Of a DNA stretch of 64,000 bases, positions 7,940 through 54,124 are shown piece by piece; within the stretch, counting starts at the first letter, position 1; each line of letters begins with the position of its first letter. Origin of the DNA: Patescibacteria group bacterium (lineage in GTDB: Bacteria; Patescibacteriota; Minisyncoccia; Phycocordibacterales; UBA9973); the NCBI GenBank assembly GCA_028868715.1, contig JAGWUB010000002.1, positions 211,388 through 275,387 of the forward strand, given 5' to 3'. Below the pieces are notes generated by a model. It was not told where the DNA came from and ran no database searches. It worked only from the letters and a program-made list of their open reading frames with translations. The position numbers and the translations under genes are program-made.

Positions 7940-8030
7940 ATGTACAGTATACAAAATTTCTGCCAAAAAAGGCAACCTAGCTATGAGGGTTGTTTGCCTT
8001 TTTGGGGCCAATATGCAATAATAGCCCTAT

Positions 8031-8276
8031 ATGAATCTAGTGGTGAAAACTCTGCCATATGCGCAGATTATCCTTTCAGTGATATTAGTGACAGCAATCA
8101 TGCTTCAGCAGTCTGGAGCAGGCTTGGGTGGTGCTTTGGGTGGAGATGATACAGGTAGCTTTCATCACACTCGCCGAGGATTTGAAAAGTTTCTTTTTTA
8201 TTTGTCTATAGTATGTGGAATTCTTTTTGCTTTGTTTGCACTTCTGTCTATTGTATTGATAAAAACAAATAGCTAG
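8031..8276 (+). CDS. secG: preprotein translocase subunit SecG
   Basis: 81 aa, two TM helices. IMLQQSGAGLGGALGG matches SecG (IMLQQGKGADMGASFG). Confidence 0.8.
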   Translation: MNLVVKTLPYAQIILSVILVTAIMLQQSGAGLGGALGGDDTGSFHHTRRGFEKFLFYLSIVCGILFALFALLSIVLIKTNS

Positions 8277-8304
8277 AAATTCCTCTACGTGAAAATTTCT
8301 TTTT

Positions 8305-10113
8305 ATGGAAAATCCCTATAACCGTAAACGTGACTTTAAGGTTGCTCTAAAATTACCGACAAAGTCAAAAATAAACGCCGCACTGGCTTCTTTCTCAAAA
8401 AGAGAACGGATTGTTTTTTCTCTGCTAGTAGTAGTGCTGTTTGTGAGTGCCCTGCTACTCTTAAATAATATCAACAGGCATTTCATGGTGAGCGTACCGA
8501 TGCATGGTGGCAGTATTTCTGAAGGAATAATCGGCACCCCTCGCTTCGTCAACCCCGTACTCGCAAACTCCCCCGCTGACCAAGACTTGGTATCGCTCAT
8601 TTATTCAGGACTTATGAGAAAAAATTCAGATGGAGAGCTGATTCCTGATTTAGCAGAAAAATACACTGTTTCTGACGATGGGCTGACTTATACTTTTACT
8701 TTGAAAAATAATATTTATTTTCATGATGGCAAACCAGTCACTGTGGATGACATCATTTACACTATAAATACAGTAAAGGATTCTGTGATCAAGAGCCCAC
8801 ACAAGGCAAACTGGGACGGAGTGACTGTTTTAAAGATAGATGAAAAAACCGTTGAATTTAATCTAAAGAAACCATATGCATCTTTTTTGGAAAATACGAC
8901 CCTCGGCATCATGCCTTCATATCTATGGGGTGGTTCACCAATTGAATTAAATAGTGAAAATACTAACCCAATCGGATCAGGACCTTATATGATCACAAAC
9001 GTTAGCAAGCAAGCTTCAGGAATAATAAATTATTATGAACTGACATCGTTTAAAAAATTTGCCTTGGGTACACCATATATAGACACTCTGGGCCTACATT
9101 TTTACTCCAATGAAGATGACATGGTGAAAGCTCTCCAAAACAAGGAAGTGGATCAGATAAGTTCGGTCACCCCTGCAAACGCAGAAATTTTAAAGAATGA
9201 TGGATATAAAATAGAATCGGCAATTCTACCTAGAGTATTCGGACTTTTCTTTAATCAAAATGCTAATAGAATTTTTATTGATAAAACTGTAGTCAATGCT
9301 ATCGATCAGGCGATAGATAAAGACAAACTAGTACATGAAGTACTCTCTGGATACGGAGTCACCATCGACGAACCAATACCACCAAATATGGTAGAGTATC
9401 AAAGTCTAAATAGTGAAAATGGTACTTCCCGCGCAGATATATTGCAGAGTGTGCAACAGAGCTTGGCCGACGACGGTTGGGTAAAAAATGCTGATGGAAT
9501 TCTAGAAAAATCAGCGCAACCAACAAAGGTAGTTAAAACAAAAAAAGGTAAGACGTCGACCGTAGCTGTAGGTAAAAAGACGACTACCCTGCTTGAGTTT
9601 TCAATCTCAACTAGCGATGCCCCAGAGCTCACCAAGGCTGCTTCGTTGATACAACAAGATTTAGCGGCTGTCGGCATGAAGGTTGATATAAAAACTTTCC
9701 AAATCGGCAGTTTAAATCAAGACGTAATCCGTCCACGTCAATATGATGCTCTGCTCTTTGGAGAAATTATCAACAATGAATCCGATCTCTTTGCTTTTTG
9801 GCATTCCTCACAAAGAAAAGACCCAGGGCTCAATGTAGCTATGTATACCAATGCAAATGTAGACAAAATTTTAGAAGATGCTTTTGTGACAATCGACAAA
9901 GCTTCTAGAGTTAAAAAATATATCCAGTTTGAAAATGAAATTAAAAAAGATATGCCAGCGGTTTTTCTATACACCCCTGATTTTGTATATGTAGTATCCA
10001 AAAATCTTTCAGGGCTTTCTATGAATCATATAACTTTCCCATCGGATCGTTTTGTTGATGTATATTCATGGTATACGGAAAAATATAATGTTTGGAAAGT
10101 ATTTACCCACTAA
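8305..10113 (+). CDS. ABC transporter substrate-binding protein, family 5 (oligopeptide/nickel type), membrane anchored
   Basis: N-terminal TM anchor; SBP_bac_5 pattern (LIYSGLMRKNSDGELIPDLAEKYTVSDDGLTYTFTLK...HDGKPVT). Confidence 0.8.
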   Translation: MENPYNRKRDFKVALKLPTKSKINAALASFSKRERIVFSLLVVVLFVSALLLLNNINRHFMVSVPMHGGSISEGIIGTPRFVNPVLANSPADQDLVSLIYSGLMRKNSDGELIPDLAEKYTVSDDGLTYTFTLKNNIYFHDGKPVTVDDIIYTINTVKDSVIKSPHKANWDGVTVLKIDEKTVEFNLKKPYASFLENTTLGIMPSYLWGGSPIELNSENTNPIGSGPYMITNVSKQASGIINYYELTSFKKFALGTPYIDTLGLHFYSNEDDMVKALQNKEVDQISSVTPANAEILKNDGYKIESAILPRVFGLFFNQNANRIFIDKTVVNAIDQAIDKDKLVHEVLSGYGVTIDEPIPPNMVEYQSLNSENGTSRADILQSVQQSLADDGWVKNADGILEKSAQPTKVVKTKKGKTSTVAVGKKTTTLLEFSISTSDAPELTKAASLIQQDLAAVGMKVDIKTFQIGSLNQDVIRPRQYDALLFGEIINNESDLFAFWHSSQRKDPGLNVAMYTNANVDKILEDAFVTIDKASRVKKYIQFENEIKKDMPAVFLYTPDFVYVVSKNLSGLSMNHITFPSDRFVDVYSWYTEKYNVWKVFTH

Positions 10114-10129
10114 TTAATAAAAAATAATA

Positions 10130-12097
10130 ATGAAAAAAACAAGACTATCTTTCAGCTCTCTCAGTATTGAGAAACCTAAAACTCCGGTGAGTACGGCTGG
10201 CAGTGAGCAAACAGCAATGCACAAAACTTCTCCTCGTAGAATTGGAGAATATTCAGCAGGAGCTGGAAAACAAAAAACTAAAGACAAAAGCCGGTCATCT
10301 AAAAGCTCCACCTATCAATATTCCAAAAATAGTCATGGACCAAGTAAAGGTGGCAGTCGTTCACCATCAGGAAAGACACAATACAAAAATCTTAACGAAA
10401 GTAAAATTCCGCCACCAGAAGCAGGAGTCATTCGAGTCATCCCCTTTGGTGGAGTAGAAGAAGTCGGGAGAAATATGTTAATAATTGAGTCCAAAGACGA
10501 CATAATCGTTTTGGATATCGGTTTCCATTTCATTGACGAAGAAGAAGCTATGGGTGCAGATTTTACACTTCCAAACTTTAAATATTTAGAGGAACGCAAA
10601 GATAAAATTCGCGCCATCGCTATCACCCACGGACACCTAGACCACATTGGTGGTATACCATTTATCGTAGACCGCATAGGCAACCCACCAATCTATGCGC
10701 AATACTTGACGACGCTCATGATAAAGAAGCGTCAAGAAGAATTTATTGGTAAACCACCTTTGACTATAAATGTGGTAGATCAAGACACTAAAGTAAAGTT
10801 TAACCAACTTTCTCTAGGCTTTTTCCCAGTTTATCACTCTATTCCTGACTCAATGGGAGTAATCGTGGGCACCCCATACGGAAATATTATCGTATCAGGC
10901 GATATGAAACTTGAGCATGAAAATGGCAAACCAACGGTGAAAGAAGAAAAAAAGTGGACAGGGCTTGGTAAAGAGAAACCACTGTTACTGATTGCTGATT
11001 CTACCAACGCTGAAGTTCCTGGATTTTCAATCTCTGAAAAGGAAGTTCAAAAAAATATTGAGGAAATAATCAAAACGACGGAAGGTCGGCTAGTTATCGG
11101 AACTTTTGCCTCTCAATTTGATCGCATGATCAAAATCGTTGAAATTTGTGAACGCTATAATAAAAAAATCGTTGTAGAAGGAAGAAGTATGAAAAACAAC
11201 GTAGACATCGCCAAGCTGGCTGGACTTTTAAAGCCAAAAGACGACACCTTTATTGCGGCGCAAGATATAGACAATTATCCACCCAATCGTATCGTCATCA
11301 TCGCCACTGGCGCCCAAGGTGAAGAATTTGCTGCGCTAATGCGAATGGCCACCAACAAGCATAAATACATCAGACTAAATGCCAAGGATACTATCATGTT
11401 TTCTTCATCCGTAATCCCTGGAAATGAGGTCAGCATCCAGAAACTAAAAGACAGCCTATATCGACATGATTTGAAACTTATCCATTATGGAATAGCCGAA
11501 ATTCACTCTGGTGGGCACGCGAGACAGGAAGACTTAGTATGGATAAATAAGGCGGTGAATCCAAAATTCTTTATGCCCGGCTATGGCAACCATTCAATGT
11601 TGCGTATCCACGCTCAGATAATTCGCGAACGAAATAATTTTCCTAAAGAAAATATCGTAGTTCCAGATAATGGAACTATCGTAGAAATCATAGATAAAGG
11701 AACTAAAATAACCGTACGCAAAGAAAAAGCTCCAGCTTCTATGATGGTAGTGGATGGACTCTCAATCGGTGATGTTCAAGATGTCGTAGTTCGCGACCGA
11801 GTGATGTTGGCTCAAGACGGAATGTTTGTCATTATCGCTCTGCTTGATCAAAAAACCGGAAAGTTAAAAAAATCTCCAGATCTTATTTCTCGTGGATTTG
11901 TCTATCTAAAGGAAAATCAGGAACTACTCCGTCAGGTCAGAATTGTTATTAAAAAATTAGTAGAAAATTCTACCGCCAAGTCCAGTGTGGTAAACTTTGA
12001 TGTACTAAAGGCAGAATTGGGAGAGAACGTATCAAAGTTTTTATATCAAAAAACAGAAAAAAGACCTTTGGTTATACCAGTAATCTTGAGCGTATAA
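10130..12097 (+). CDS. rnj: ribonuclease J (beta-CASP metallo-beta-lactamase) with ~100-aa basic/Ser-rich N-terminal extension
   Basis: HGHLDH (ITHGHLDHIGG) and beta-CASP motifs; full RNase J pattern from IRVIPFGGVEEVGRNM onward. The N-terminal low-complexity region is K/S/G rich. Confidence 0.85.
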   Translation: MKKTRLSFSSLSIEKPKTPVSTAGSEQTAMHKTSPRRIGEYSAGAGKQKTKDKSRSSKSSTYQYSKNSHGPSKGGSRSPSGKTQYKNLNESKIPPPEAGVIRVIPFGGVEEVGRNMLIIESKDDIIVLDIGFHFIDEEEAMGADFTLPNFKYLEERKDKIRAIAITHGHLDHIGGIPFIVDRIGNPPIYAQYLTTLMIKKRQEEFIGKPPLTINVVDQDTKVKFNQLSLGFFPVYHSIPDSMGVIVGTPYGNIIVSGDMKLEHENGKPTVKEEKKWTGLGKEKPLLLIADSTNAEVPGFSISEKEVQKNIEEIIKTTEGRLVIGTFASQFDRMIKIVEICERYNKKIVVEGRSMKNNVDIAKLAGLLKPKDDTFIAAQDIDNYPPNRIVIIATGAQGEEFAALMRMATNKHKYIRLNAKDTIMFSSSVIPGNEVSIQKLKDSLYRHDLKLIHYGIAEIHSGGHARQEDLVWINKAVNPKFFMPGYGNHSMLRIHAQIIRERNNFPKENIVVPDNGTIVEIIDKGTKITVRKEKAPASMMVVDGLSIGDVQDVVVRDRVMLAQDGMFVIIALLDQKTGKLKKSPDLISRGFVYLKENQELLRQVRIVIKKLVENSTAKSSVVNFDVLKAELGENVSKFLYQKTEKRPLVIPVILSV

Positions 12098-12098
12098 G

Positions 12099-13253
12099 AT
12101 GACATCCAAACATCCATTTAGACTTCTATACTTTGTCGGTTTTATTTTTTCAATCCAGTATGGATTGGTGTTGTATATAAATTCTAGTTTTTTGGAACAA
12201 GTAATTCCCGAAAAAATTGTGGGTTTGGTATTCACCCTTGCCTCCTTTTTATCAATCCTCTTTTTACTAGAAATTCCAAGAATACTGAGCCGACTAGGTA
12301 ATTATAAAACTGCGATAATCCTCGTACTATGCAGCTCTATTTCTTTATTTAGCTTAAGTATTGCGCATTCAGCTCTTAGCACCGTTATCGCTTTTTTGTT
12401 TTACACTGTTGCAAATTATTCTCTACTGTTGTCCTTGGATGTTTTCATTGAAGAATATATTACCAGTGGAAAAATTGGCCGAACTCGCGGAACTTTTTTG
12501 GGTATCAGAAATTTAGGTATATTGATATCGCCAAGTATCGCTGTTTTGATCGTTACAAAAGCTTCATTTTTTGGCGTTTATTTATCAGCTTCATTATTTA
12601 CCCTCACTTCCCTCTTATTTATTTTCCCGCATTTGAAAAATTTTGAGGATCCTATCTACCGAAGAATATTAGTACGCGAAACACTAAAGAAAGTAAAACA
12701 AGATATAAGCTTAAAAAGGATATACTTGAGCGAATTTTTACTTTGCTTTTTTTATTCTTGGATGATAATTTACATGCCAATTTATCTTCATCAATATATC
12801 GGCTTTGGATGGCAAAACATCGGATTTATTTTTACTATCATGCTTATTCCCTTTGTGTTGGTGGATTATCCACTCGGGCGTTTATCGGACAAGATTGGAG
12901 AGAAAAAACTGTTAATTTTTGGATTTTCTATGGTATCTCTGTCCACAATTGCCATTTTCTTTCTCAAAACTCAAAGCATTTTTATTTGGGCACTAGTTTT
13001 GTTTGCGACCAGAGTCGGAGCAGCTGTCATTGAAGTAATGAACGAAAGTTATTTTTTCAAAAAAATTATGGCAGAGGATGCTGGGCTAATCAGCTTTTTT
13101 AGAAATATGTTTCCATTTGCTTTTATCGTCGCTCCCCTTTTTGCAATCCCTGTTTTATTCTTGGTTCCTTCTTTTAAATTTCTTTTTTTGACTCTCGGCA
13201 CGATAATGCTCTTGGGCTTTTTATCTAGCCTCCGATTGAAAGATGTAAAGTAA
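12099..13253 (+). CDS. MFS transporter
   Basis: 384 aa with 12 predicted TM helices and an MFS-like loop (GRLSDKIGEKK). Confidence 0.7.
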   Translation: MTSKHPFRLLYFVGFIFSIQYGLVLYINSSFLEQVIPEKIVGLVFTLASFLSILFLLEIPRILSRLGNYKTAIILVLCSSISLFSLSIAHSALSTVIAFLFYTVANYSLLLSLDVFIEEYITSGKIGRTRGTFLGIRNLGILISPSIAVLIVTKASFFGVYLSASLFTLTSLLFIFPHLKNFEDPIYRRILVRETLKKVKQDISLKRIYLSEFLLCFFYSWMIIYMPIYLHQYIGFGWQNIGFIFTIMLIPFVLVDYPLGRLSDKIGEKKLLIFGFSMVSLSTIAIFFLKTQSIFIWALVLFATRVGAAVIEVMNESYFFKKIMAEDAGLISFFRNMFPFAFIVAPLFAIPVLFLVPSFKFLFLTLGTIMLLGFLSSLRLKDVK

Positions 13254-14649: not shown

Positions 14650-15105
14650 TCAAAAATTATATTTTTTTAGCAAGTGACTTTTATATATTTTTTCCTTGTG
14701 AGGCTTTAAACGTATTATTTTTACGATAAGACCTTTATTTTTTAAGTCTTTTTTTAGATTTTGTACGTAGGCTCTTTGGTCATATCCTAGGGCAATAATA
14801 TTGGGCTTTTCTTTTAAAATGTGTGGAATGTGATTCTTTACTCCAGAAAGTATTACTTTATCAACCAAGGGACATTTTTTTAATAAAATCATCCTTTTCT
14901 TTTCATTTAAAGTCGGATACTTACCCTTTATTTTCAAAACATTTTTATCACGTGCGATTGAAACTATCAGAAATGATGCTTGGTCTAATTTTTTAGCCTG
15001 TTTTAAAAAATTTAAGTGTCCCTCGTGCAGTCCATCAAAGGTACCAAACACCATTATTTTTACCCTACTTACTGGAGGGTTCTTTTCCACAGGTTTTTTT
15101 GACAT
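14650..15105 (-). CDS. cytidylyltransferase-like nucleotidyltransferase (FAD-synthetase/TagD-like)
   Basis: GTFDGLHEGH (HxGH) nucleotidyltransferase motif in a 151-aa protein. Confidence 0.65.
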   Translation of the reverse strand: MSKKPVEKNPPVSRVKIMVFGTFDGLHEGHLNFLKQAKKLDQASFLIVSIARDKNVLKIKGKYPTLNEKKRMILLKKCPLVDKVILSGVKNHIPHILKEKPNIIALGYDQRAYVQNLKKDLKNKGLIVKIIRLKPHKEKIYKSHLLKKYNF

Positions 15106-15149
15106 AAGTTAAGGTAAGTATATACTAAGTTAGTTCCTTTTAAAAATTA

Positions 15150-15328
15150 AGAGAAGTGATTGGGGAAACTGGTTAGATTCCAGTACAGTGCCGCTACGGT
15201 AAGTCCCGATACGCCAATTGGCGAATCGAGGAACAAGTCCGAATACCAATCATTTTACTAATCCCGAGCAGGATCCTCTCTCATTTTTTTGAGAGACCAC
15301 AAATTCTGCCCGAGCAGAATTTTTTTTA
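15150..15328 (+). promoter_or_regulatory. cobalamin (B12) riboswitch with intrinsic terminator expression platform
   Basis: 15162-15205 GGGGAAACTGGTTAGATTCCAGTACAGTGCCGCTACGGTAAG matches the cobalamin aptamer core. There is a B12-box-like AGTCCGAATACCAATC (15237-15252). A TCTCTC/GAGAGA hairpin is followed by the terminator TTCTGCCCGAGCAGAA+T9 (15304-15328), ending 3 nt before the ATG at 15332. Confidence 0.75.
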
Positions 15329-15331
15329 TTT

Positions 15332-15793
15332 ATGAGAAGAAATATAAAAATAATAATAGCCGTTATAATTTTCCTGTCACTTGGAATTTTAGGTTGGCAA
15401 AATATTCACAAGCAAACCCTTGGCAGGAGCGTTAGCAACGAACAGAAAAATTTTTTAGCAAAAAAATTTCTTGGTGAATCCGAGAATATTTTGCCAACCC
15501 AACTCAAAACCGCGGATATAGAAGTAAACGGTGTAAAATACCAAACTGAAATTTCACAAAACACCAGTGTATATGATTTTATGGATAAATTGCGAACTGA
15601 AGGAAAAATAAATTTTGAGGACAAAACCTATGTCGGGATGGGGAAATTTATTGAATCCATAAATGGGATTAAAAATACTGGAGACAAAAGCTGGATCTAC
15701 TATGTCAACGGCAAAGAGGCACAAATTGGGGTTTCAAATTATAAGATGAATCCGGGAGATGTCGTATCTTGGAAATATGAGAAGGGTTATTAA
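15332..15793 (+). CDS. signal-anchored DUF4430-family protein (putative cobalamin-binding beta-domain protein)
   Basis: 153 aa; N-terminal TM/signal; DUF4430-like pattern (YYVNGKEAQIGVSNYKMNPGDVVSWKY). It sits directly downstream of the B12 riboswitch. Confidence 0.65.
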   Translation: MRRNIKIIIAVIIFLSLGILGWQNIHKQTLGRSVSNEQKNFLAKKFLGESENILPTQLKTADIEVNGVKYQTEISQNTSVYDFMDKLRTEGKINFEDKTYVGMGKFIESINGIKNTGDKSWIYYVNGKEAQIGVSNYKMNPGDVVSWKYEKGY

Positions 15794-15807
15794 GTTGTTT
15801 AAAAAAT

Positions 15808-17631
15808 ATGAAAAAAATATTAAAAGTTTTAATGGTTGTTGGAATATTATTAGCCGGAGGAAATAATTTAGCTCACGCAGATCCTCAAAGTGTAAACCTG
15901 ACTGTTCGTGATGGAGCCACCATTGTCTTCTCTGGGGCTGTGACCCTACCTACGACCATAACCAGCTTAAATGATGCCACGAATACGCCACACACCATTA
16001 ATTCCAGTAGTGTGCTCTCGGTATTGGATAGTGCTGCCACAGGCACAGGTTCAAATTTTAGTATTTCCAATCTGACATATTTTAGCTCTTTTGATTCTCT
16101 TTATTTAAAGTGTATTACCGACCCAAGTGGAGAAAAATGTGACAACTGGCAATATGCTGTAAATGGCTCTGGTCCTAGTGTAGGTATGGATAAAAATATT
16201 TTAGCTGGTGGAGAAAATGTATATGTGTATTTTGGGCCACAAAATAAAATTACTTTGAGTTCAGGAAATATAAAAACCACGGATACTTTGACCGTCACCA
16301 CGCAAAACTATGATTATGTAAATAATGCTTGGATCACAAGAGCTGGAGTGACTGTGGGTTTGACCCAACCTGACCCAAGCAATCCTTCTACGCCAACTGA
16401 AGTTAAAACTAGTCCAGTAGACGCTAATGGTCAAGCAACCTTTTCATCAATTCCTGCTGGAAATTATAATGTCGGAGTAAAAGAAGATTATTATTTTCCA
16501 ACTGAAGCCCTTACTGTAGCTACTCCTCCACCAACATCGAGTGGAGGTGGAGGTGGAGGAGGTGGATACGTAGCGAGTGCTGGCAAAGTGCTCGGAGTCA
16601 CCACTACTAAGACCGGCTTTGATTTAAAACTGGCATCTGATTTTCTTGTAGCCCAACAAAAGCCAGATGGCTCCTTTGGCGAAGATCTGTATACTGACTG
16701 GGCGGGTATGGCTTTAGCATCTGGAAATTATCAGAATCAAGTAATAAAACTAATTAAACATTTTGAAGAATCCCCTATTGCTGGTACTAATCTTACAGAT
16801 TATGAGAGGCATGCGATGGCATTGATGGCTCTCGGTCTCAATCCTTATGATACCAATGGCACAAACTACATTAAAAAAATAGCCGATAGTTTTGACGGTA
16901 AACAATTTGGAGATCCAACTCAAAATAATGACGATATTTTTGCGCTAATAGTTTTACAAAATGCCGGATACGGACAAGATGAAAAAATGATAACTGATGA
17001 TGTATCTTTTATACTTAGTACCCAAAAACAAGATGGCTCTTGGGATGAAAGTATAGATATGACTGGAGCTGGCATAGAAGCTTTGTCCGCATTCAATAAA
17101 AGTGATCAAGTAAAAAGTTCACTAACTAAAGCAGAGGCATTTTTAAAACAAACAGAGGAGAGCAATGGAGGCTGGGGTGATAATGCATCTTCCACTGCGT
17201 GGGCCATCGAAGGCATATTGGCCTTGGGTGAAAAACCGGAAGATTGGAAAAAAAATGATCCGACAAATCCTGGTGTAAGTAATACTCCACTTGATTATCT
17301 GGCAACAATGCAAGATACAGATGGCGGAATAAAGGATGCTAATATACAAACTAAAATTTGGGAAACAACTTACGTGATTTCTGCCCTCTCTGGTAAAACT
17401 TGGAATCAAACTATGCAAACATTTGATAAACCTAAAGATGTTAGTAATGTTCCTGGTGCATCCCCTGAAATAAAACCTGCGACAAAACCTGTAGTAATGT
17501 TAAAAAAAATAACTCCAATCACATCCAAAACAACAATACATGAAATAACTTTACCGGAAACACAAAATCCACCAGCACTAATACCTAAACCAGAAAACTG
17601 GTTCTCCAGATTGATACATTTTATTTTTTAA
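15808..17631 (+). CDS. secreted protein with prenyltransferase/squalene-oxidase-type alpha-alpha toroid repeats (putative cobalamin-binding alpha-domain protein)
   Basis: Signal peptide; Gly8 linker; repeated QxxDGSW, GGWGDN and TAWAIEGILALG motifs characteristic of PF00432/PF13243 repeats; Pro/Thr-rich C-terminal tail. Confidence 0.65.
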   Translation: MKKILKVLMVVGILLAGGNNLAHADPQSVNLTVRDGATIVFSGAVTLPTTITSLNDATNTPHTINSSSVLSVLDSAATGTGSNFSISNLTYFSSFDSLYLKCITDPSGEKCDNWQYAVNGSGPSVGMDKNILAGGENVYVYFGPQNKITLSSGNIKTTDTLTVTTQNYDYVNNAWITRAGVTVGLTQPDPSNPSTPTEVKTSPVDANGQATFSSIPAGNYNVGVKEDYYFPTEALTVATPPPTSSGGGGGGGGYVASAGKVLGVTTTKTGFDLKLASDFLVAQQKPDGSFGEDLYTDWAGMALASGNYQNQVIKLIKHFEESPIAGTNLTDYERHAMALMALGLNPYDTNGTNYIKKIADSFDGKQFGDPTQNNDDIFALIVLQNAGYGQDEKMITDDVSFILSTQKQDGSWDESIDMTGAGIEALSAFNKSDQVKSSLTKAEAFLKQTEESNGGWGDNASSTAWAIEGILALGEKPEDWKKNDPTNPGVSNTPLDYLATMQDTDGGIKDANIQTKIWETTYVISALSGKTWNQTMQTFDKPKDVSNVPGASPEIKPATKPVVMLKKITPITSKTTIHEITLPETQNPPALIPKPENWFSRLIHFIF

Positions 17632-47962: not shown

Positions 47963-48307
47963 ATGACAGGAGGCGGACAAACTAGTATTATATCGATACT
48001 AGGGGATGCCGAAAAGTACATGGCGGAACTAAAAGTACTTCGAGAAATCCTTTCGAAGTCAGTGAACTTCTTTTTTAATTCTCAATTTTGTCTAAATGAT
48101 AAGGAGGTCACTTTCATTTACAAAGAAGACGAGAAGGATGATGGGAAGATCATTGTAACGTTCAAAAAACTTGGAGATTTACCTGGTATATACATAAGCT
48201 GTCGTTCGTGCTGGATGACAAGCAATGGCGTATTTCTTTTCAGTGAAAAGGCAAAATACGATAAGTGTTACGCTTGCTGCCATATACCGAGAGAAATTTT
48301 CAAATAA
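47963..48307 (+). CDS. hypothetical protein with C-terminal Cys cluster (possible zinc ribbon)
   Basis: 114 aa; CRSCW...CYACCH. Confidence 0.4.
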   Translation: MTGGGQTSIISILGDAEKYMAELKVLREILSKSVNFFFNSQFCLNDKEVTFIYKEDEKDDGKIIVTFKKLGDLPGIYISCRSCWMTSNGVFLFSEKAKYDKCYACCHIPREIFK

Positions 48308-48362
48308 ACAATTAAACGATTTATCAAAAAAGACCTGGGGCATCCCGGGCTTTTTTTAATTC

Positions 48363-48920
48363 TTATTGATAACTAGGTTTTATTTCTTCTTCGCCTTCTA
48401 TGTGACTAGAAATGCGCGCTAAGGCATAGAGTAAACTAGATAACCGATTTAAATATTGCCTAGATTCTGCAGAAACGTTTCTTTTCCCTTCTTCTTGCAC
48501 AGCCACTACCCTCCTCTCTGCTCTTCTCGCTAGTGTTCGTGCAAAATCAAACATACCACCTACTTCTGTTGCACCAGAAATAAAAAATGTTTTTATCGGT
48601 GGCAACATTTTTTCAATACCATCCACCAATGCCTCTACTTCTTTTATCTTATCTTCGCTGATGCTCATCTCTGATCCAGCCACTTCGGCCTGAACTATGA
48701 AAAGATTTTGCTGAACCACTAAAATAACATCGGAAAACTTTTGTTCACCTGATTCTATTTTAAAACTCATACCTTTAGTTTTCGCCCGAGTAAAACCAAG
48801 AAAAGAGTTCACTTCATCGAGTGTACCTAGCGCTTCCGCCACAAGTGAACTTTTTGAAACCCGTTGGTCACAACCGAAGGTCTTGGTAGTGCCATCGTCC
48901 CCTTTCCTGGTATACAACAT
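48363..48920 (-). CDS. pduO: PduO-type ATP:cob(I)alamin adenosyltransferase
   Basis: MLYTRKGDDGTTKTFG...LNSFLG matches the PduO-type N-terminus (IYTKTGDKGTTSL). Start placed at the internal ATG (48920), 11 nt after the nrdJ stop. Confidence 0.85.
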   Translation of the reverse strand: MLYTRKGDDGTTKTFGCDQRVSKSSLVAEALGTLDEVNSFLGFTRAKTKGMSFKIESGEQKFSDVILVVQQNLFIVQAEVAGSEMSISEDKIKEVEALVDGIEKMLPPIKTFFISGATEVGGMFDFARTLARRAERRVVAVQEEGKRNVSAESRQYLNRLSSLLYALARISSHIEGEEEIKPSYQ

Positions 48921-48931
48921 AGTTTTTTTAG

Positions 48932-51238
48932 TTAGATCTCGCAGACTCCAGAGACACAAGCAAATTCTTTTGCTCCTACGGTATTGTCAGTAGCCTCGTA
49001 TTGAGAAAGTTTTGAGAAATCAATCTTACCGATAGCTTTTGAACGTCTTTCGTATTCTTCCTTTTTTATTTCTTCATATGGAGCTAGCTGATAGACGTGT
49101 TCTGATCGTGGCAGGAAAGAAAGTCCACCAATCCAATCCCAATTTTCGTAAACGAAATTACCTACAGCTATCCACTCATCTGGGCCAACATAAATAGTTG
49201 CCGATGGATTGTGTTCTACAAAGTGCTCTTTGAGTCTCTTCCATTCCTTCATTAAATCTAAAGCTGAAACTTCATCTTTAAAGATAGCTCCTTGGGGTGC
49301 TTTTACTGGGAATTCCAGAACAAACGTGGTGGCTGTGTCTTCTGATTGCCCGACTTCGGGTAAACATGGCACTCCTTGATCTCGAGCCATTTGCAGTAAT
49401 GTATCAGTGTGAGAAATGCGTACTCGGCGAATAAAATATGGAGCGTACCAAGGGTGCATACCTGAGCCGACTCCTAGGAGCTGACCGGAATTTCCGTGTG
49501 GCTTTACGCAAGTGATCGCAGTAGAAGAATTAATCCCAAAACGTTTTGCATATTTTTTATTTACTTCAACCGAATGTGCTTTTAGAGCGTCCAATACTTT
49601 ATCTTCGCGAACAATCGGATTATCGTAATATCCAGTGAGTGATACTCCGAGCAATCTTTCTTCGTCACAATTTTCTTTCCATTTTTTTGAAAGATAACCA
49701 AAATTAGTTAAGGTAGATTGATATGTTCCAAGTAAGGTAGCGAGTTCTATCTTTCTCTTTAGTGTCGCTGCTGTGTCTTTTGGACGGATGACTATACTGG
49801 TTAAATTACAAAATTGCTTTGATCTCAAATAAATTTCTCCGCAAGGATTTAATCCGATCTGTCTTTCGTCTTTGATAGCTGCCCATCTACGCGCTGGTAC
49901 TTGTTTCTCTAGTCCTGCTCGGTTGAAAATTCCACGCTCACCAGATTTTGATTTTACAAGTGCAGTCCACTCATCCAAGAATTCTTCTGCTCCAGGCTTT
50001 GCATTATAAACTGCAGAATTATTTGCCATAGCTCTCTGACCTTCAGTGAGATAAAATTGTCCTTTCTTTGAGTCTCGCATTTCTGTATCTTCAAGTTCGG
50101 AAAGAGAGATGAGTGCGCTACGTCGTACTCCTCCGGCGACAACGATCAAACCGATCTGGCAGATGATATCGTGCATATCTAAGTTTGAAAGTCTTCTACC
50201 TTGTTTAGATAAAATTTTACGTTTAGAAAATTCCATCAAGTCCATTAGTGGTTGCGGTCCGGAAGCTTTACCTCCAGCTGTTTCTAGACGTGAACCAGCT
50301 GGTCTGATCATTCCATAATCAAACTTCACATCTCTGCCATCAAACCAAGCATTTAATCCCAAAACAAAAGCATCCGCCCAACCTTCTTTACTATCTACGA
50401 CTACGTGCGTCGGAGCTTTTTCTTTTATTTGTTTCTTGATTTGTGGAAATTTTTGAACATTTTCCCATTCAACTGCAAAGCCAAGCCCTGCTCCACACAT
50501 AGAGACATACATGATCTCGCCAAGGTCTTGGGTGCAGGTAGGAGCAATATATGAACAATTATAAGCCCAAACATTAGACTGACGACAAGCTTTGCCAGCA
50601 GACCATAAAAGTCGCATAGATGGGCAAATATCTTGATTTAAGATAGCTTCTCTGACGTCTTCATACTCTTTAGCGGTAAGTTTGTTTCCGAGGTTCTCCT
50701 TCATGTAAGCCATGTAGCGATCAATAGTTTCTATCCATGTCTCACGACGGCCAAGCTCTGGAATCCAACGAGAATAAAATTGGTAGAAAATATATTCTGA
50801 GTAAGGGCTTGAAAAATATTTACTAGATTCTTCGACAGCAAGACGAACTGCTTCTGGTACTGGACCAAATTCTGCTCGAAGAAGAGAACGCTTGTTACGA
50901 TAAAGTATGTAGCTCTTGGCTGTAGCGGTAAAATCATTTTTCATCAACTCTTTTTCTACAAAATCTTGGACTATCTCAACTGTGGGCAAAAATTTTGCAC
51001 CCTTGTGTTTGTTTACTAACTCAGTCCGCAATTCGAGAAGGTTTTTAAAAACACTATTAGCTACCTTGTGAGATTCAGTTTCTCCACCTTCACCTGTGAC
51101 TTCAAAAGCTTTAGAAATGGCTCCAGCGATAATTTCTAAATCAAAAGGAATTACCTCCCCGCTTCTCTTGCGAATTGATTTTATTTTTGATAATTCGCTT
51201 TTTGAAATTTTTTCTTTTGTTTTTGTTTTTGTTGTCAT
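48932..51238 (-). CDS. nrdJ: class II (adenosylcobalamin-dependent) ribonucleotide reductase NrdJ with N-terminal ATP-cone
   Basis: NPCGEIYLRSKQFCNLTSI (NPCGE thiyl-radical Cys plus CNL) is the class II hallmark. N-terminal ATP-cone-like segment; C-terminal Cys pair ACVSGVC. Confidence 0.85.
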   Translation of the reverse strand: MTTKTKTKEKISKSELSKIKSIRKRSGEVIPFDLEIIAGAISKAFEVTGEGGETESHKVANSVFKNLLELRTELVNKHKGAKFLPTVEIVQDFVEKELMKNDFTATAKSYILYRNKRSLLRAEFGPVPEAVRLAVEESSKYFSSPYSEYIFYQFYSRWIPELGRRETWIETIDRYMAYMKENLGNKLTAKEYEDVREAILNQDICPSMRLLWSAGKACRQSNVWAYNCSYIAPTCTQDLGEIMYVSMCGAGLGFAVEWENVQKFPQIKKQIKEKAPTHVVVDSKEGWADAFVLGLNAWFDGRDVKFDYGMIRPAGSRLETAGGKASGPQPLMDLMEFSKRKILSKQGRRLSNLDMHDIICQIGLIVVAGGVRRSALISLSELEDTEMRDSKKGQFYLTEGQRAMANNSAVYNAKPGAEEFLDEWTALVKSKSGERGIFNRAGLEKQVPARRWAAIKDERQIGLNPCGEIYLRSKQFCNLTSIVIRPKDTAATLKRKIELATLLGTYQSTLTNFGYLSKKWKENCDEERLLGVSLTGYYDNPIVREDKVLDALKAHSVEVNKKYAKRFGINSSTAITCVKPHGNSGQLLGVGSGMHPWYAPYFIRRVRISHTDTLLQMARDQGVPCLPEVGQSEDTATTFVLEFPVKAPQGAIFKDEVSALDLMKEWKRLKEHFVEHNPSATIYVGPDEWIAVGNFVYENWDWIGGLSFLPRSEHVYQLAPYEEIKKEEYERRSKAIGKIDFSKLSQYEATDNTVGAKEFACVSGVCEI

Positions 51239-51243
51239 GGGAT

Positions 51244-51798
51244 TTAAATTATTTTAGGGTTAAGAATATTAATGGAAGATACTACCGACTTTCGTTTCCT
51301 TTTTTTTATCAGAAACTTATATATGGCGGGAGATAAAACTAAAGCAAAAGAAATGTTTCCCAAGAGATGCAGTGCGGTAAATGGAATCTGTCCGACGAGT
51401 GTAGTCAGAAACGATTGATGGAAGAACAATGGACCGATAGTTAAGCCCGTCACAGCATCAAAAAACAAAGTTCCAATGATTGCAAAACGCACGTAACTCC
51501 ATCTGTCTGAATTATGCTTCTTAAAATAACTTGCAGACCAAAAACCTATTACTCCATAAGCTCCAGTGGTAAATAAAGTTTGCAAACCAAGTGTTCCAGT
51601 TAATACATCGTAGAGTAAAATACTTAAAACGGCAAAAGAAAAACCCGCAAGGGCTCCATAGTACTTACTAAATGGCATAGTGGTCGCTAATATTGGTTCA
51701 ATATTTGGTGCGCGTAGCGGAAGAAGTCGTACGAGAAGACACAAGACAAGTCCAACTGTAAATTTAAAATAATTTTTTTTGCCTGAATCCATAGACAA
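51244..51798 (-). CDS. ECF-transporter S-component-like 6-TM membrane protein (substrate unknown; B12 candidate by context)
   Basis: 184 aa with 5-6 TM helices and the size/topology of an ECF S component. It is the first gene of the nrdJ-pduO operon. Confidence 0.45.
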   Translation of the reverse strand: MSMDSGKKNYFKFTVGLVLCLLVRLLPLRAPNIEPILATTMPFSKYYGALAGFSFAVLSILLYDVLTGTLGLQTLFTTGAYGVIGFWSASYFKKHNSDRWSYVRFAIIGTLFFDAVTGLTIGPLFFHQSFLTTLVGQIPFTALHLLGNISFALVLSPAIYKFLIKKRKRKSVVSSINILNPKII

Positions 51799-51804
51799 CC
51801 ATTA

Positions 51805-51840
51805 TACACGAAACCAGACCCCTTATGTAAAGTGGATAAC
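51805..51840 (-). promoter_or_regulatory. sigma70-type promoter with extended -10 (TGTATAAT) for the ECF-S/nrdJ/pduO operon
   Basis: On the minus strand, TTACAT-N18-TGTATAAT ends 8 nt before the ATG, implying a leaderless or near-leaderless mRNA. Confidence 0.45.
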
Positions 51841-52053
51841 CCTGATTTTTTGCTAATTTTGACGAAAAATTATTTTAAGCAACATCGAAAAAAATAAAAC
51901 AAGATGCAGTCCAGAACCTCTAGGGTTGGCAACAGTTTTTAAGTCACAATTTTTTTTATTTTTGTAAAACTAGCTGTATTGACAACACTAATAATGTAAT
52001 TTCTAATATAAAATTACGAATTCTGGGATAGATTTTTGGGTTGGCTCAATTTT

Positions 52054-52130
52054 TGGTGCGCGTGCCACGATTCGAACGTGGGACCCTCGAGGTATAAGCT
52101 CGATGCTCTAACCAACTGAGCTACACGCGC
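52054..52130 (-). tRNA. tRNA-Ile (anticodon UAU), CCA encoded
   Basis: GCGCGTGTAGCTCAGTTGGTTAGAGCATCGAGCTTATACCTCGAGGGTCCCACGTTCGAATCGTGGCACGCGCACCA. Anticodon stem TCGAG/CTCGA, loop CTTATAC. Confidence 0.8.
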
Positions 52131-52189
52131 ATACAGAAATACAATATCTCATTTTCGCATTAAAAACAATATAAAAAACAACAAGAATC

Positions 52190-54124
52190 TTAAAGAAGAG
52201 ATTCTTCAGTCGGAGCTATAATTTCTTTTTTCTTTAGCAGAATGCCATGAGCAGTTAGAATTTTCTCATATTCCTCTTGTTCTAGAGTTTCTACTTCGAT
52301 GAGCTTGTGAGCTATGGCTGTAAATGCTTTTTTATTTTCCGCTAAAACTTTTTCTGCAGTCTTCAATCCATCATTTACGATTCTCTTAACCTCAGCATCA
52401 ACTTGGGTAGAGACATTTTCAGAATATTCTTTTTCTACAACTTCTCCATATTGAGTTCGGGTGCTTCCGCCCAAAGTAATCGGACCGATAACATCCGACA
52501 TCCCCCACCGCGTGACCATAGAGCGAGCGAGATTTGTCGCTACTTGTAAATCACTTGATGGTCCGGTAGTAATATCGCCGAACATCATCTGCTCTGCCGC
52601 ATATCCACCGAGTGACATGGCGATGTCATCTATGAATTCTTTTTTTGATTGCAGACGTCTTTCTTCAAGTGGTAATTTCAAAGTGTATCCTCCAGCATTT
52701 CCGCGAGCGATGATAGAAACTTTATGTACTGGATCAGCATAAGGCAAGACTGAAGCAACCAGCGCATGACCCGCTTCGTGATACGCAGTAATTTCTTTTT
52801 CTTTTTTAGAAAGTAAATGACTTTTGCGTTCAGGCCCAAGCATAACTTTTTCAATCGCCCGAATCAGATCAAATTGAAAAACTTTTTTACGATTCTCACG
52901 TGCAGCCAAAATTGCCCCTTCATTCATTAGAGAATATAAATCAGCGCCAGAAAATCCTGGAGTGCGTTCCGCAATTAATTTTAAATTAATATCTTCAGCT
53001 AATGGTTTTTTTACCGCATAAATTTCCAAGATTGCTTCGCGGTCAGCGCGATCAGGTAAATCCAAAATTACTTTTCTATCAAAACGTCCAGGACGAACAA
53101 GTGCTGGGTCGAGCACATCTGGTCTATTGGTAGCGGCCATGACTATAACTTTATCGTTTGGCTCAAAACCATCCATTTCTACTAGTATTTGATTTAAGGT
53201 CTGCTCTCGTTCGTCGTTTCCTCCTCCAAATCCCCCACCACGAATTCGTCCGATGGCATCTATTTCATCCACAAATATAATGGCTGGAGCGGATTTTTTG
53301 GCCATTTTAAACAAATCTCTTACTCTTGAGGCTCCAACGCCCACAAACATTTCCACAAATTCACTACCTGACAAATGGAAAAATGGTACTGAAGCTTCAC
53401 CAGCCACAGCTCGAGCAAGTAGGGTCTTGCCTGTGCCAGGAGAGCCGGTCAACATCACACCCTTGGGAATCCTAGCTCCTATATCCAAAAATTTCTTTGG
53501 GCTTTTCAGAAAGTCTACGATTTCTTTTAATTCTTCCTTAGCTTCTTTACATCCAGCGACATCTTTGAAAGTTACTCGGCTATTTTTATCATTCGGATCA
53601 GTGATACGCGCCTTGGATTGCCCAAAAGTCATAGCCTGCATTCCTGCACCTTTTACTTGGCGCGAAATATACCAAAAGAAAATTACAATAAATAAAATCG
53701 GTAATAGAAACGGTAGAATATTTAAAAGCCAGAAACTAAATCCGTTCTCATCTTTTATTTGGATATCAGTTTGGGCGAGTGCCTCACTGGTGACACCATA
53801 ATTAAAAAGTGTTTGCGAAAGTGCTGAGCCGACTTCTTTTTTAGATGTTTTTACTTGGTCGTCAATGTAAGTGATAGAAAGATTGTCCCCCTCAACAACA
53901 ATTTTCTTAACTTCTCCAGCAGAAACACTTTTAGCTAAATCAGAAATTGAAACCTCGGGAATAGTTTTTCCGCTTCCACTTATTACTAAGTAAAGTGCGG
54001 CGATGATCATAAAAATAAATAAAGCCCCAGCAATACTAGTGGAAAGTTTTGTTTCCTTTTTACCATCTTTACCTCCGCCTTTATTGTTTTGTCCGATTTT
54101 TTTCTTTAAAGAATTGAAATCCAT
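52190..54124 (-). CDS. ftsH: ATP-dependent zinc metalloprotease FtsH
   Basis: Two N-terminal TMs; AAA module ([13 protein letters not shown]); HEAGHA zinc site. Confidence 0.95.

Follow-up and report, generated by a model that had tools for sequence, protein, structure and literature searches.

How does a patescibacterial cell provide cofactor for its ribonucleotide reductase (RNR) when that enzyme appears to belong to the class that uses adenosylcobalamin (AdoCbl)? The question is raised by an operon in a 64,000-nt stretch of DNA from a Patescibacteria group bacterium (GenBank assembly GCA_028868715.1, contig JAGWUB010000002.1, positions 211,388 to 275,387), hereafter the window. [quoted passage not shown] An earlier note, made from the sequence alone, had described the same three-gene set with pduO starting 11 nt after the nrdJ stop, and the scan reproduced both its coordinates and this gap. 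For this locus we established what the genes encode, the predicted fold of the membrane protein, how the operon is laid out, which neighbours are conserved and where riboswitches lie. On these grounds it is probably the Paceibacteria version of the cobalamin-salvage and RNR module of Lactobacillales, which consists of nrdJ, pduO, cbrS/DUF4430 and cbrT.

We compared NrdJ with curated protein families and solved structures. The best model was ribonucleoside-triphosphate reductase (RTPR; TIGR02505), matched with 285.1 bits (E 1e-84) against an equivalog cut-off of 340 bits, so that NrdJ counts as a diverged relative and not as a strict RTPR equivalog. Alignment with the Lactobacillus leichmannii RTPR structure (1L1L; E 2.6e-41) was colinear over residues 151-745, almost the whole catalytic body. 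The residues N406, C408, E410, C419 and C119 of the L. leichmannii enzyme and its C-terminal Cx4C pair have equivalents in the window protein, whose catalytic residues are N464-P-C466-G-E468, C477 (in C477-N-L), C228 and C761-x4-C766. The long loop-1 insertion domain that takes the place of the dimer interface (PF21995) gave a sub-threshold match, at 24.6 bits with a gathering score of 27, and is a clear precomputed match in a 757-aa NrdJ relative from a distant locus (L086). Unlike the L. leichmannii enzyme, NrdJ carries an ATP-cone (residues 21-118; 58.4 bits) with an intact K-R-S-G-E start. To our knowledge, no mode of action has been described for an ATP-cone on a monomeric-type class II enzyme. 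ATP-cones are present in approximately 11% of class II RNR sequences (PMC9669993). In the PDB, residues 17-122 came closest to the ATP-cone that Leeuwenhoekiella blandensis carries fused to its NrdB (5OLK; E 2.6e-15). These comparisons support a class II reductase of the monomeric RTPR type, extended by an ATP-cone, and not a class I or class III enzyme, in line with the NPCGE and CNL motifs from which class II had been proposed.

The third gene product matched PF01923 over residues 2-170 (149.7 bits; cut-off 24) and TIGR00636 (132.6 bits; cut-off 108.45). With both curated cut-offs exceeded, the PduO-type adenosyltransferase assignment of the earlier note was upheld at the level of protein family.

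The first gene required a correction of its start. Reading from a TTG codon gives 184 aa (51798..51244), the length reported in the earlier note, and reading from the ATG at 51792 gives 182 aa. Because the 182-aa product is identical to the protein annotated at NCBI (P0001) and its N-terminus agrees with those of all homologues, the ATG is the real start and the product has 182 residues, so that the S-component-like character stood and the length did not. The nrdJ gene begins 5 nt past the S-gene stop; pduO starts at the ATG at 48920, and its 185-aa product begins MLYTRKGDDGTT. No Shine-Dalgarno-like purine run was found in the 5-nt or 11-nt intergenic gap. The G+C content was 33-42% across the window, without a compositional break at the locus.

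To place the membrane protein, we relied on its family. The close family comprised 927 sequences, from Candidatus Paceibacterota and Nomurabacteria genomes, and 212 cluster representatives were obtained at E<=0.001. A single-sequence search of the PDB and a search with the profile of the close family (alignment A1) returned nothing useful; only the profile built from 72 diverse family sequences (alignment A2), on which the AlphaFold2 model was also based, reached CbrT. This profile matched PDB chain 6FNP_A with 50.5 bits (E 2e-12), and the next S-components were 4HZU_S (18 bits) and FolT (12 bits), which left CbrT ahead by 32 bits. The entry 6FNP is ECF-CbrT of Lactobacillus delbrueckii, and we took its 182-aa "membrane protein" chain as CbrT because the EcfT and EcfA proteins are much longer. 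An hhalign comparison of the S family with CbrT gave 96.9%, and the two share a C..R motif in helix 1, a PNV-P motif in loop 1, G-WT and F..H..GN. Within the 72-member family, curated Pfam models matched at E<=0.01 were PF07155 (25 members), PF20221 (21) and PF12822 (12); a CbrT fragment matches PF12822 at 51.3 bits. The model showed six helices with a pLDDT of 92.6 and a pTM of 0.85, and 21 of the 23 best Foldseek matches in the PDB, filling ranks 1-21, were ECF S-components (probabilities 0.99-1.00; TM-scores of approximately 0.6-0.7).

Conservation within the family was strong, with 57 invariant positions among 24 species of Paceibacteria (alignment A1). The invariant residues include C18, R22, an R-A-P-N-x-E-P loop, D62, D112, Q-x-P-F-T and H142, and R22, PNxEP, D62, D112, QxPFT and H142 line the region of the S-component cavity. 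The cytoplasmic C-terminal tail (51244..51270) carries a near-invariant N-I-L-N-P-K-x-I motif after a lysine-rich stretch, and a partner may dock on this peptide. Model confidence in this tail was low (pLDDT 59-74), and the aligned part of CbrT has no counterpart to it. Profile and model together support an S-component fold with CbrT as the nearest characterised relative; a corrinoid would be the substrate. The earlier note had named a corrinoid (CbrT-like) carrier as one option. Searches against S-component families, which it had proposed, gave a sub-threshold Pfam score for the protein alone and the CbrT match for the A2 profile.

We then examined the surroundings of the S gene in 80 loci from different GTDB species, onto which the window proteins were mapped; the loci were retrieved with the close alignment and are therefore all from Paceibacteria. 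The S gene adjoins nrdJ in every one of the 80. The order S-nrdJ-pduO was found in 57 loci, the contig ends after nrdJ in 10 more, and 11 have the order nrdJ-S. In 24 of the 80, the cluster, with or without pduO, has two DUF4430 genes immediately behind it. These gene maps newly document the cluster as universal in one class of Patescibacteria; our literature search found no paper linking Patescibacteria or the candidate phyla radiation with ECF transporters, cobalamin or RNR class. Partners were retained even by S homologues of only 27-29% identity: one (P0268) overlaps an ATP-cone-bearing nrdJ, and behind two others (P0225 and P0263) comes a DUF4430 gene. A distant homologue (L093) has a gene other than nrdJ upstream and no riboswitch over threshold. 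In the clade with the nrdJ-S order (L074-L083), and in L068 and L070, no pduO homologue was found within 10 kb of the cluster, and their adenosyltransferase would be either encoded elsewhere or replaced.

The lactobacillal gene set has reportedly been predicted since 2009. Its biochemical demonstration came in 2018, when ECF-CbrT of L. delbrueckii, whose cbrT lies within an nrdJ-cbrS-cbrT-pduO cluster, was found to transport B12 (PMC5997447). A tblastn search of plasmids with the CbrT segment returned 41 records from Lactobacillales and other Bacillota. Plasmid pLp900-2 of Lactobacillus plantarum (L090) carries, in order, nrdJ (annotated as AdoCbl-dependent ribonucleoside-triphosphate reductase), pduO, a DUF4430 gene and an ECF S-component gene, and an Enterococcus faecalis plasmid (L091) carries the same four genes among insertion sequence (IS) elements. 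The published cbrS is most likely the DUF4430 gene, judging from these gene orders. In Lactobacillales the set is carried by plasmids that are mobilisable or conjugative and is flanked by IS6 and IS30 elements, and therefore moves as a cassette; on pLp900-2 a yjdF (azaaromatic) riboswitch adjoins it.

The window shares with the Lactobacillales cluster the same four families (RTPR-type reductase, PduO, DUF4430 and CbrT-type S-component) and the same plan, in which B12 is imported, activated and used to make deoxyribonucleotides, and no riboswitch was found before nrdJ of L. plantarum either. It differs in that the S gene comes first, and in that the DUF4430 genes are duplicated (one encoding a 607-aa multidomain protein), riboswitch-controlled and 33 kb away. 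Identities between the L. plantarum and window proteins were 23% (S), 27% (NrdJ), 30% (PduO) and 34% (DUF4430, over 56 residues), which points to an old, shared module rather than to recent transfer. Since the same gene set is known from Lactobacillales, the arrangement is not new, and the window locus is a distant new member of a known module.

The putative capture genes lie at 15 kb in the window, behind its only cobalamin riboswitch. This unit has its own TTGACA/TATACT promoter, and after the aptamer a hairpin (TTCTGC-CCGA-GCAGAA) followed by T8 stands just before the ATG at 15332 (region 15099..15331), an arrangement that indicates control by transcription termination. The 607-aa protein (15808..17631) combines a signal peptide, DUF4430, a segment resembling Ig/CarboxypepD_reg, a run of glycines and an alpha/alpha-toroid region like that of squalene cyclases. 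In vertebrate transcobalamins, DUF4430 forms the C-terminal domain (PMC4350170). The window protein shares with transcobalamin the pair of toroid and DUF4430, in reverse order; no direct sequence similarity to solved transcobalamin or intrinsic factor structures was found for the DUF4430 proteins, and only squalene-hopene cyclase repeats were matched.

No riboswitch was found upstream of the operon at the gathering score, and the interval 51700..52200 held nothing relevant even at E<=10, in agreement with the earlier note. Six related loci (L043, L045, L060, L065, L074 and L078) have a cobalamin-clan riboswitch between pduO or S and the DUF4430 genes, and in none of these six does a riboswitch lie upstream of S or nrdJ. 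From this placement it follows that the capture proteins are B12-repressed and that carrier, reductase and adenosyltransferase are free of B12 feedback. The earlier note had linked the operon to the distant riboswitch-controlled unit, a link supported by the 24 related species in which the DUF4430 pair directly follows the cluster.

These elements suggest the following pathway. Two DUF4430 surface proteins would capture a corrinoid from the environment or a host, with the riboswitch turning them off when B12 is plentiful. The captured corrinoid would then be handed to the six-helix CbrT-like S-component and carried across the membrane. Inside, the PduO-type enzyme would convert cob(I)alamin to AdoCbl, which would serve as radical initiator for the RTPR-like class II reductase making deoxyribonucleotides, and this enzyme would be re-reduced via its C-terminal Cx4C pair. 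A strong promoter of its own would drive the S-nrdJ-pduO operon, whose message would have no leader or almost none and be free of feedback from B12.

Several points count against this interpretation of the locus. Taken alone, the window S protein lay below every Pfam cut-off and matched neither PF12822 nor PF20221. The CbrT structure 6FNP was not among the Foldseek top 50 for the model, and identity to Lactobacillales CbrT is only about 23%. Transport and binding by the family are read from genes and a predicted structure. A motif filter with partial Pfam searches turned up no ECF module, either in the window or at the 80 related loci over a range of 10 kb. Finally, the Pfam survey, which covered essentially all window ORFs of at least 110 aa not inside a longer gene, and a tblastn search with the reductase revealed no cob/cbi gene, BtuCDF, second reductase or NrdR, a negative that holds for the 64-kb window only. 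The same tblastn search found no second RNR-like or ATP-cone ORF, and the survey no NrdB, glycyl-radical domain or activase family.

The energy source of the putative carrier is the point at which readings of the locus diverge. We scanned the window and 1.16 Mb of related loci for ECF modules with a filter for Walker-A and LSGGQ motifs, followed by Pfam searches of short candidates and their neighbours; longer candidates were judged by size. The ABC ATPases of the window were FtsE, beside FtsX and prfB, and one fused exporter, the latter seen in the general Pfam survey. Overall, Pfam assigned the short candidates and their neighbours only to FtsEX and to importers of the Liv and NMT1/Tau types; the short ABC ATPases of the related loci were from classical importers, and a tblastn search of plasmids with FtsE for an annotated ECF ATPase found none. 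The genes of shared (group II) ECF modules usually lie far away from those of the S-components. The default reading is that a shared EcfAA'T module encoded elsewhere energises the S-component in the classical ECF-dependent mode, because CbrT requires such a module, and we consider this somewhat better than an even chance.

A solitary B12 carrier working without EcfAA'T, as described for BtuM and some BioY proteins, is possible and clearly the less likely arrangement. Here DUF4430 binding outside, and adenosylation and NrdJ binding inside, would pull B12 inward by metabolic trapping. Solitary S-components have a precedent in BtuM of Thiobacillus denitrificans, an S-component-like B12 carrier (PMC6072759), and neither EcfT nor EcfA was found in the regions scanned, although the usual distance of shared modules means that local absence says little. 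In ThiT and other S-components, an AxxxA motif of small residues in helix 1 docks on EcfT. At the columns of the CbrT AxxxA pair the window protein has T12 and V16, and its family T/S/A and V/I/F, so that the pair is absent at the aligned positions; the alignment may slip by a helix turn, and two residues along the family conserves a [GA]14-x3-C18 pair. The invariant and unexplained cytoplasmic tail, N-I-L-N-P-K-x-I, can also be counted in favour of a solitary carrier. On the other side, CbrT, the closest characterised relative, needs its module: alone in E. coli, it gave neither B12-dependent growth nor transport (PMC5997447).

BtuM was also considered as a model for the S protein and rejected. 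The two would share a small six-helix S-component fold for B12 and, if the window genome has no ECF module, possibly a module-free action. The profile, however, gave no BtuM match at E<=10, Foldseek E-values were 1.4-1.8, and the cobalt-ligating loop-3 cysteine is absent. The sole invariant cysteine of the S family is C18 in helix 1, and none corresponds to Cys80 of BtuM. BtuM is linked to btuB in Proteobacteria, whereas the window S gene is linked to nrdJ.

It is improbable that the S-like protein carries another small molecule (riboflavin, for instance, a precursor of queuosine or thiamine, or a deoxynucleoside), with its position beside nrdJ unrelated to B12. The sole single-sequence Pfam match was to the riboflavin S-component family PF07155, at 16.6 bits and thus below the cut-off of 26.7, the same model was matched by 25 of the 72 family members, and no riboswitch precedes the S gene. 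Against this, the CbrT match of the profile exceeded that of any other solved S-component, and the linkage to nrdJ was found in all 80 loci. In many lineages, homologues of 27-29% identity among them, the S gene also keeps company with DUF4430 genes and cobalamin riboswitches, and the same partnership exists in Lactobacillales, where B12 transport has been demonstrated (PMC5997447). Still less credible is a membrane protein that is no transporter at all (one that anchors the reductase or adenosyltransferase in the membrane or helps to assemble it, or else a relic in decay), for while the conserved cytoplasmic C-terminal motif has no explained role and transport is deduced here from sequence and model, the family keeps 57 invariant positions in 24 species with motifs in the S-component cavity region, an intact predicted fold, and no S-gene frameshifts or truncations across the 80 loci.

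With a corrinoid carrier as the preferred reading, it is a reasonable inference, checked over 64 kb of the genome, that replication depends on scavenged B12. It is supported because NrdJ is conserved at housekeeping level in the closer relatives: its identity is 56-91% across the loci and 83-91% in the closer relatives, where FtsH and RecG show 79-91%. The deoxyribonucleotide supply of a widespread uncultured class thus appears to rest on B12, with no synthesis genes seen in the window, and the module would probably be essential. Such a dependence would help to explain the need of these bacteria for partners, and suggests B12 or cobinamide as a cultivation supplement. A bolder version, which we regard as doubtful, holds that Paceibacteria lack EcfAA'T, that the CbrT-like protein and the DUF4430 proteins form a minimal ATP-independent B12 uptake route feeding the sole RNR, and that the conserved DnaA-box-like element ties expression to the replication initiator. 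If the absence of EcfAA'T and the single RNR were true, DNA synthesis in a large group of ultra-small bacteria would hang on the corrinoid of their neighbours. The locus offers a compact test case for the role of an ATP-cone on a monomeric-type class II reductase and for CbrT-type carriers without an ECF motor.

Regulation of the operon was assessed from its upstream region. The S-gene ATG comes 8 nt after the -10 TATAAT; a consensus promoter scanner with a 16-18 nt spacer rule had omitted this promoter, whose spacer is 19 nt. When 51 upstream regions were aligned, the block TTTACA-N-TCGTGTATAAT was present in 27, that of the window and those of 26 among the 50 related loci, and in these the -10 element ends 6-9 nt (once 11 nt) before the ATG. 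The geometry fits a leaderless or nearly leaderless operon mRNA, as the earlier note had supposed, in about half of the relatives and not universally. A second group (L004, L007, L008, L015, L018, L021 and L022) has the same promoter approximately 90 nt further upstream, giving a leader. Seven loci (L037, L043, L047, L054, L049, L069 and L070) carry a quasi-palindrome, (T)AGTTGCGAAACTATGCAAC, in either orientation between promoter and start; it looks like a regulator site, with no recognised motif match.

Directly upstream of the -35 element lies a DnaA-box-like sequence. A single copy in the window alone is not significant, and conservation is the evidence for it. Exact TTATCCAC occurred 86 times in 1.15 Mb of related loci, and 46 of these copies, more than half of all in the related DNA, lay no more than 260 nt upstream of the cluster and on its coding strand. 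By locus, 46 of 77 had an exact upstream copy and 67 of 77 had one when one mismatch was allowed, against a background of approximately 0.01 per 260 nt. Relative to the S start, the box of L004-L072 lies near -45 or near -128, and it was retained even where the -35 and -10 elements had changed. DnaA may bind at GTTATCCAC. The promoter of E. coli nrdAB has DnaA boxes. The window resembles it in having a consensus-like box just upstream of the RNR operon promoter, and differs in having a single putative box, which abuts the -35 of an operon for a class II enzyme in a patescibacterium. No enrichment of DnaA boxes was found near the distant L086 cluster. In that locus (8001..13250), an S homologue of 27% identity and nrdJ form a pair directly upstream of dnaN-recF, in a region that probably holds the origin of replication.

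Immediately behind pduO, the DnaA-box-like sequence is found again in four loci (L043 at 5526, L064 at 13401, L039 at 13454 and L029 at 7148). In L043 and L064 this copy is upstream of a riboswitch or DUF4430 unit, and downstream of the copies in L039 and L029 no DUF4430 gene was detected. In the window, a one-mismatch copy, TTTTCCACA, lies at 15083..15091, 7 nt before the TTGACA of the riboswitch promoter. The features of the window are collected in Table 1.

Table 1. Features of the B12-linked operon and of the separate capture unit, in window coordinates.
Feature	Position	Strand	Basis
CbrT-like S-component gene, first in operon; 182 aa, six predicted transmembrane helices	51244..51792	-	ORF scan, family profile, predicted fold
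nrdJ, class II ribonucleotide reductase; 768 aa, ATP-cone and RTPR-like catalytic body	48932..51238	-	Pfam/NCBIfam, 1L1L alignment, catalytic residues
pduO, PduO-type ATP:cob(I)alamin adenosyltransferase; 185 aa	48363..48920	-	Pfam and NCBIfam over curated cut-offs
Predicted promoter: -35 TTTACA (51831..51826), 19-nt spacer, TG and -10 TATAAT (51806..51801)	51801..51831	-	Sequence, upstream-region alignment
DnaA-box-like GTTATCCAC, 8 of 9 of TTATCCACA, abutting the -35	51832..51840	-	Sequence and conservation
Cobalamin riboswitch of the separate capture unit	15114..15268	+	42 bits vs gathering score 31.5
Two DUF4430 genes: 153-aa membrane-anchored protein and 607-aa secreted protein	15332..17631	+	Pfam survey, structure matches
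Terminator-like G+C-rich hairpin with T/A runs on both sides, between convergent pduO and orf114	48334..48349		Hairpin scan, sequence

The hairpin beyond pduO was reported by the scan on the plus strand only, the minus-strand stem having one C-A mismatch. The ORF convergent with pduO (47963..48307, plus strand) lies between recG and pduO and encodes a cysteine-rich protein of 114 aa; it had no family match and was found solely in contigs of the same organism. Upstream of the operon are a tRNA-Ile gene and ftsH, and the operon promoter lies between the tRNA and the S gene. The tRNA-Ile (52054..52130, minus strand) has the anticodon UAU, a rarer way to read AUA than the lysidine-modified CAU.

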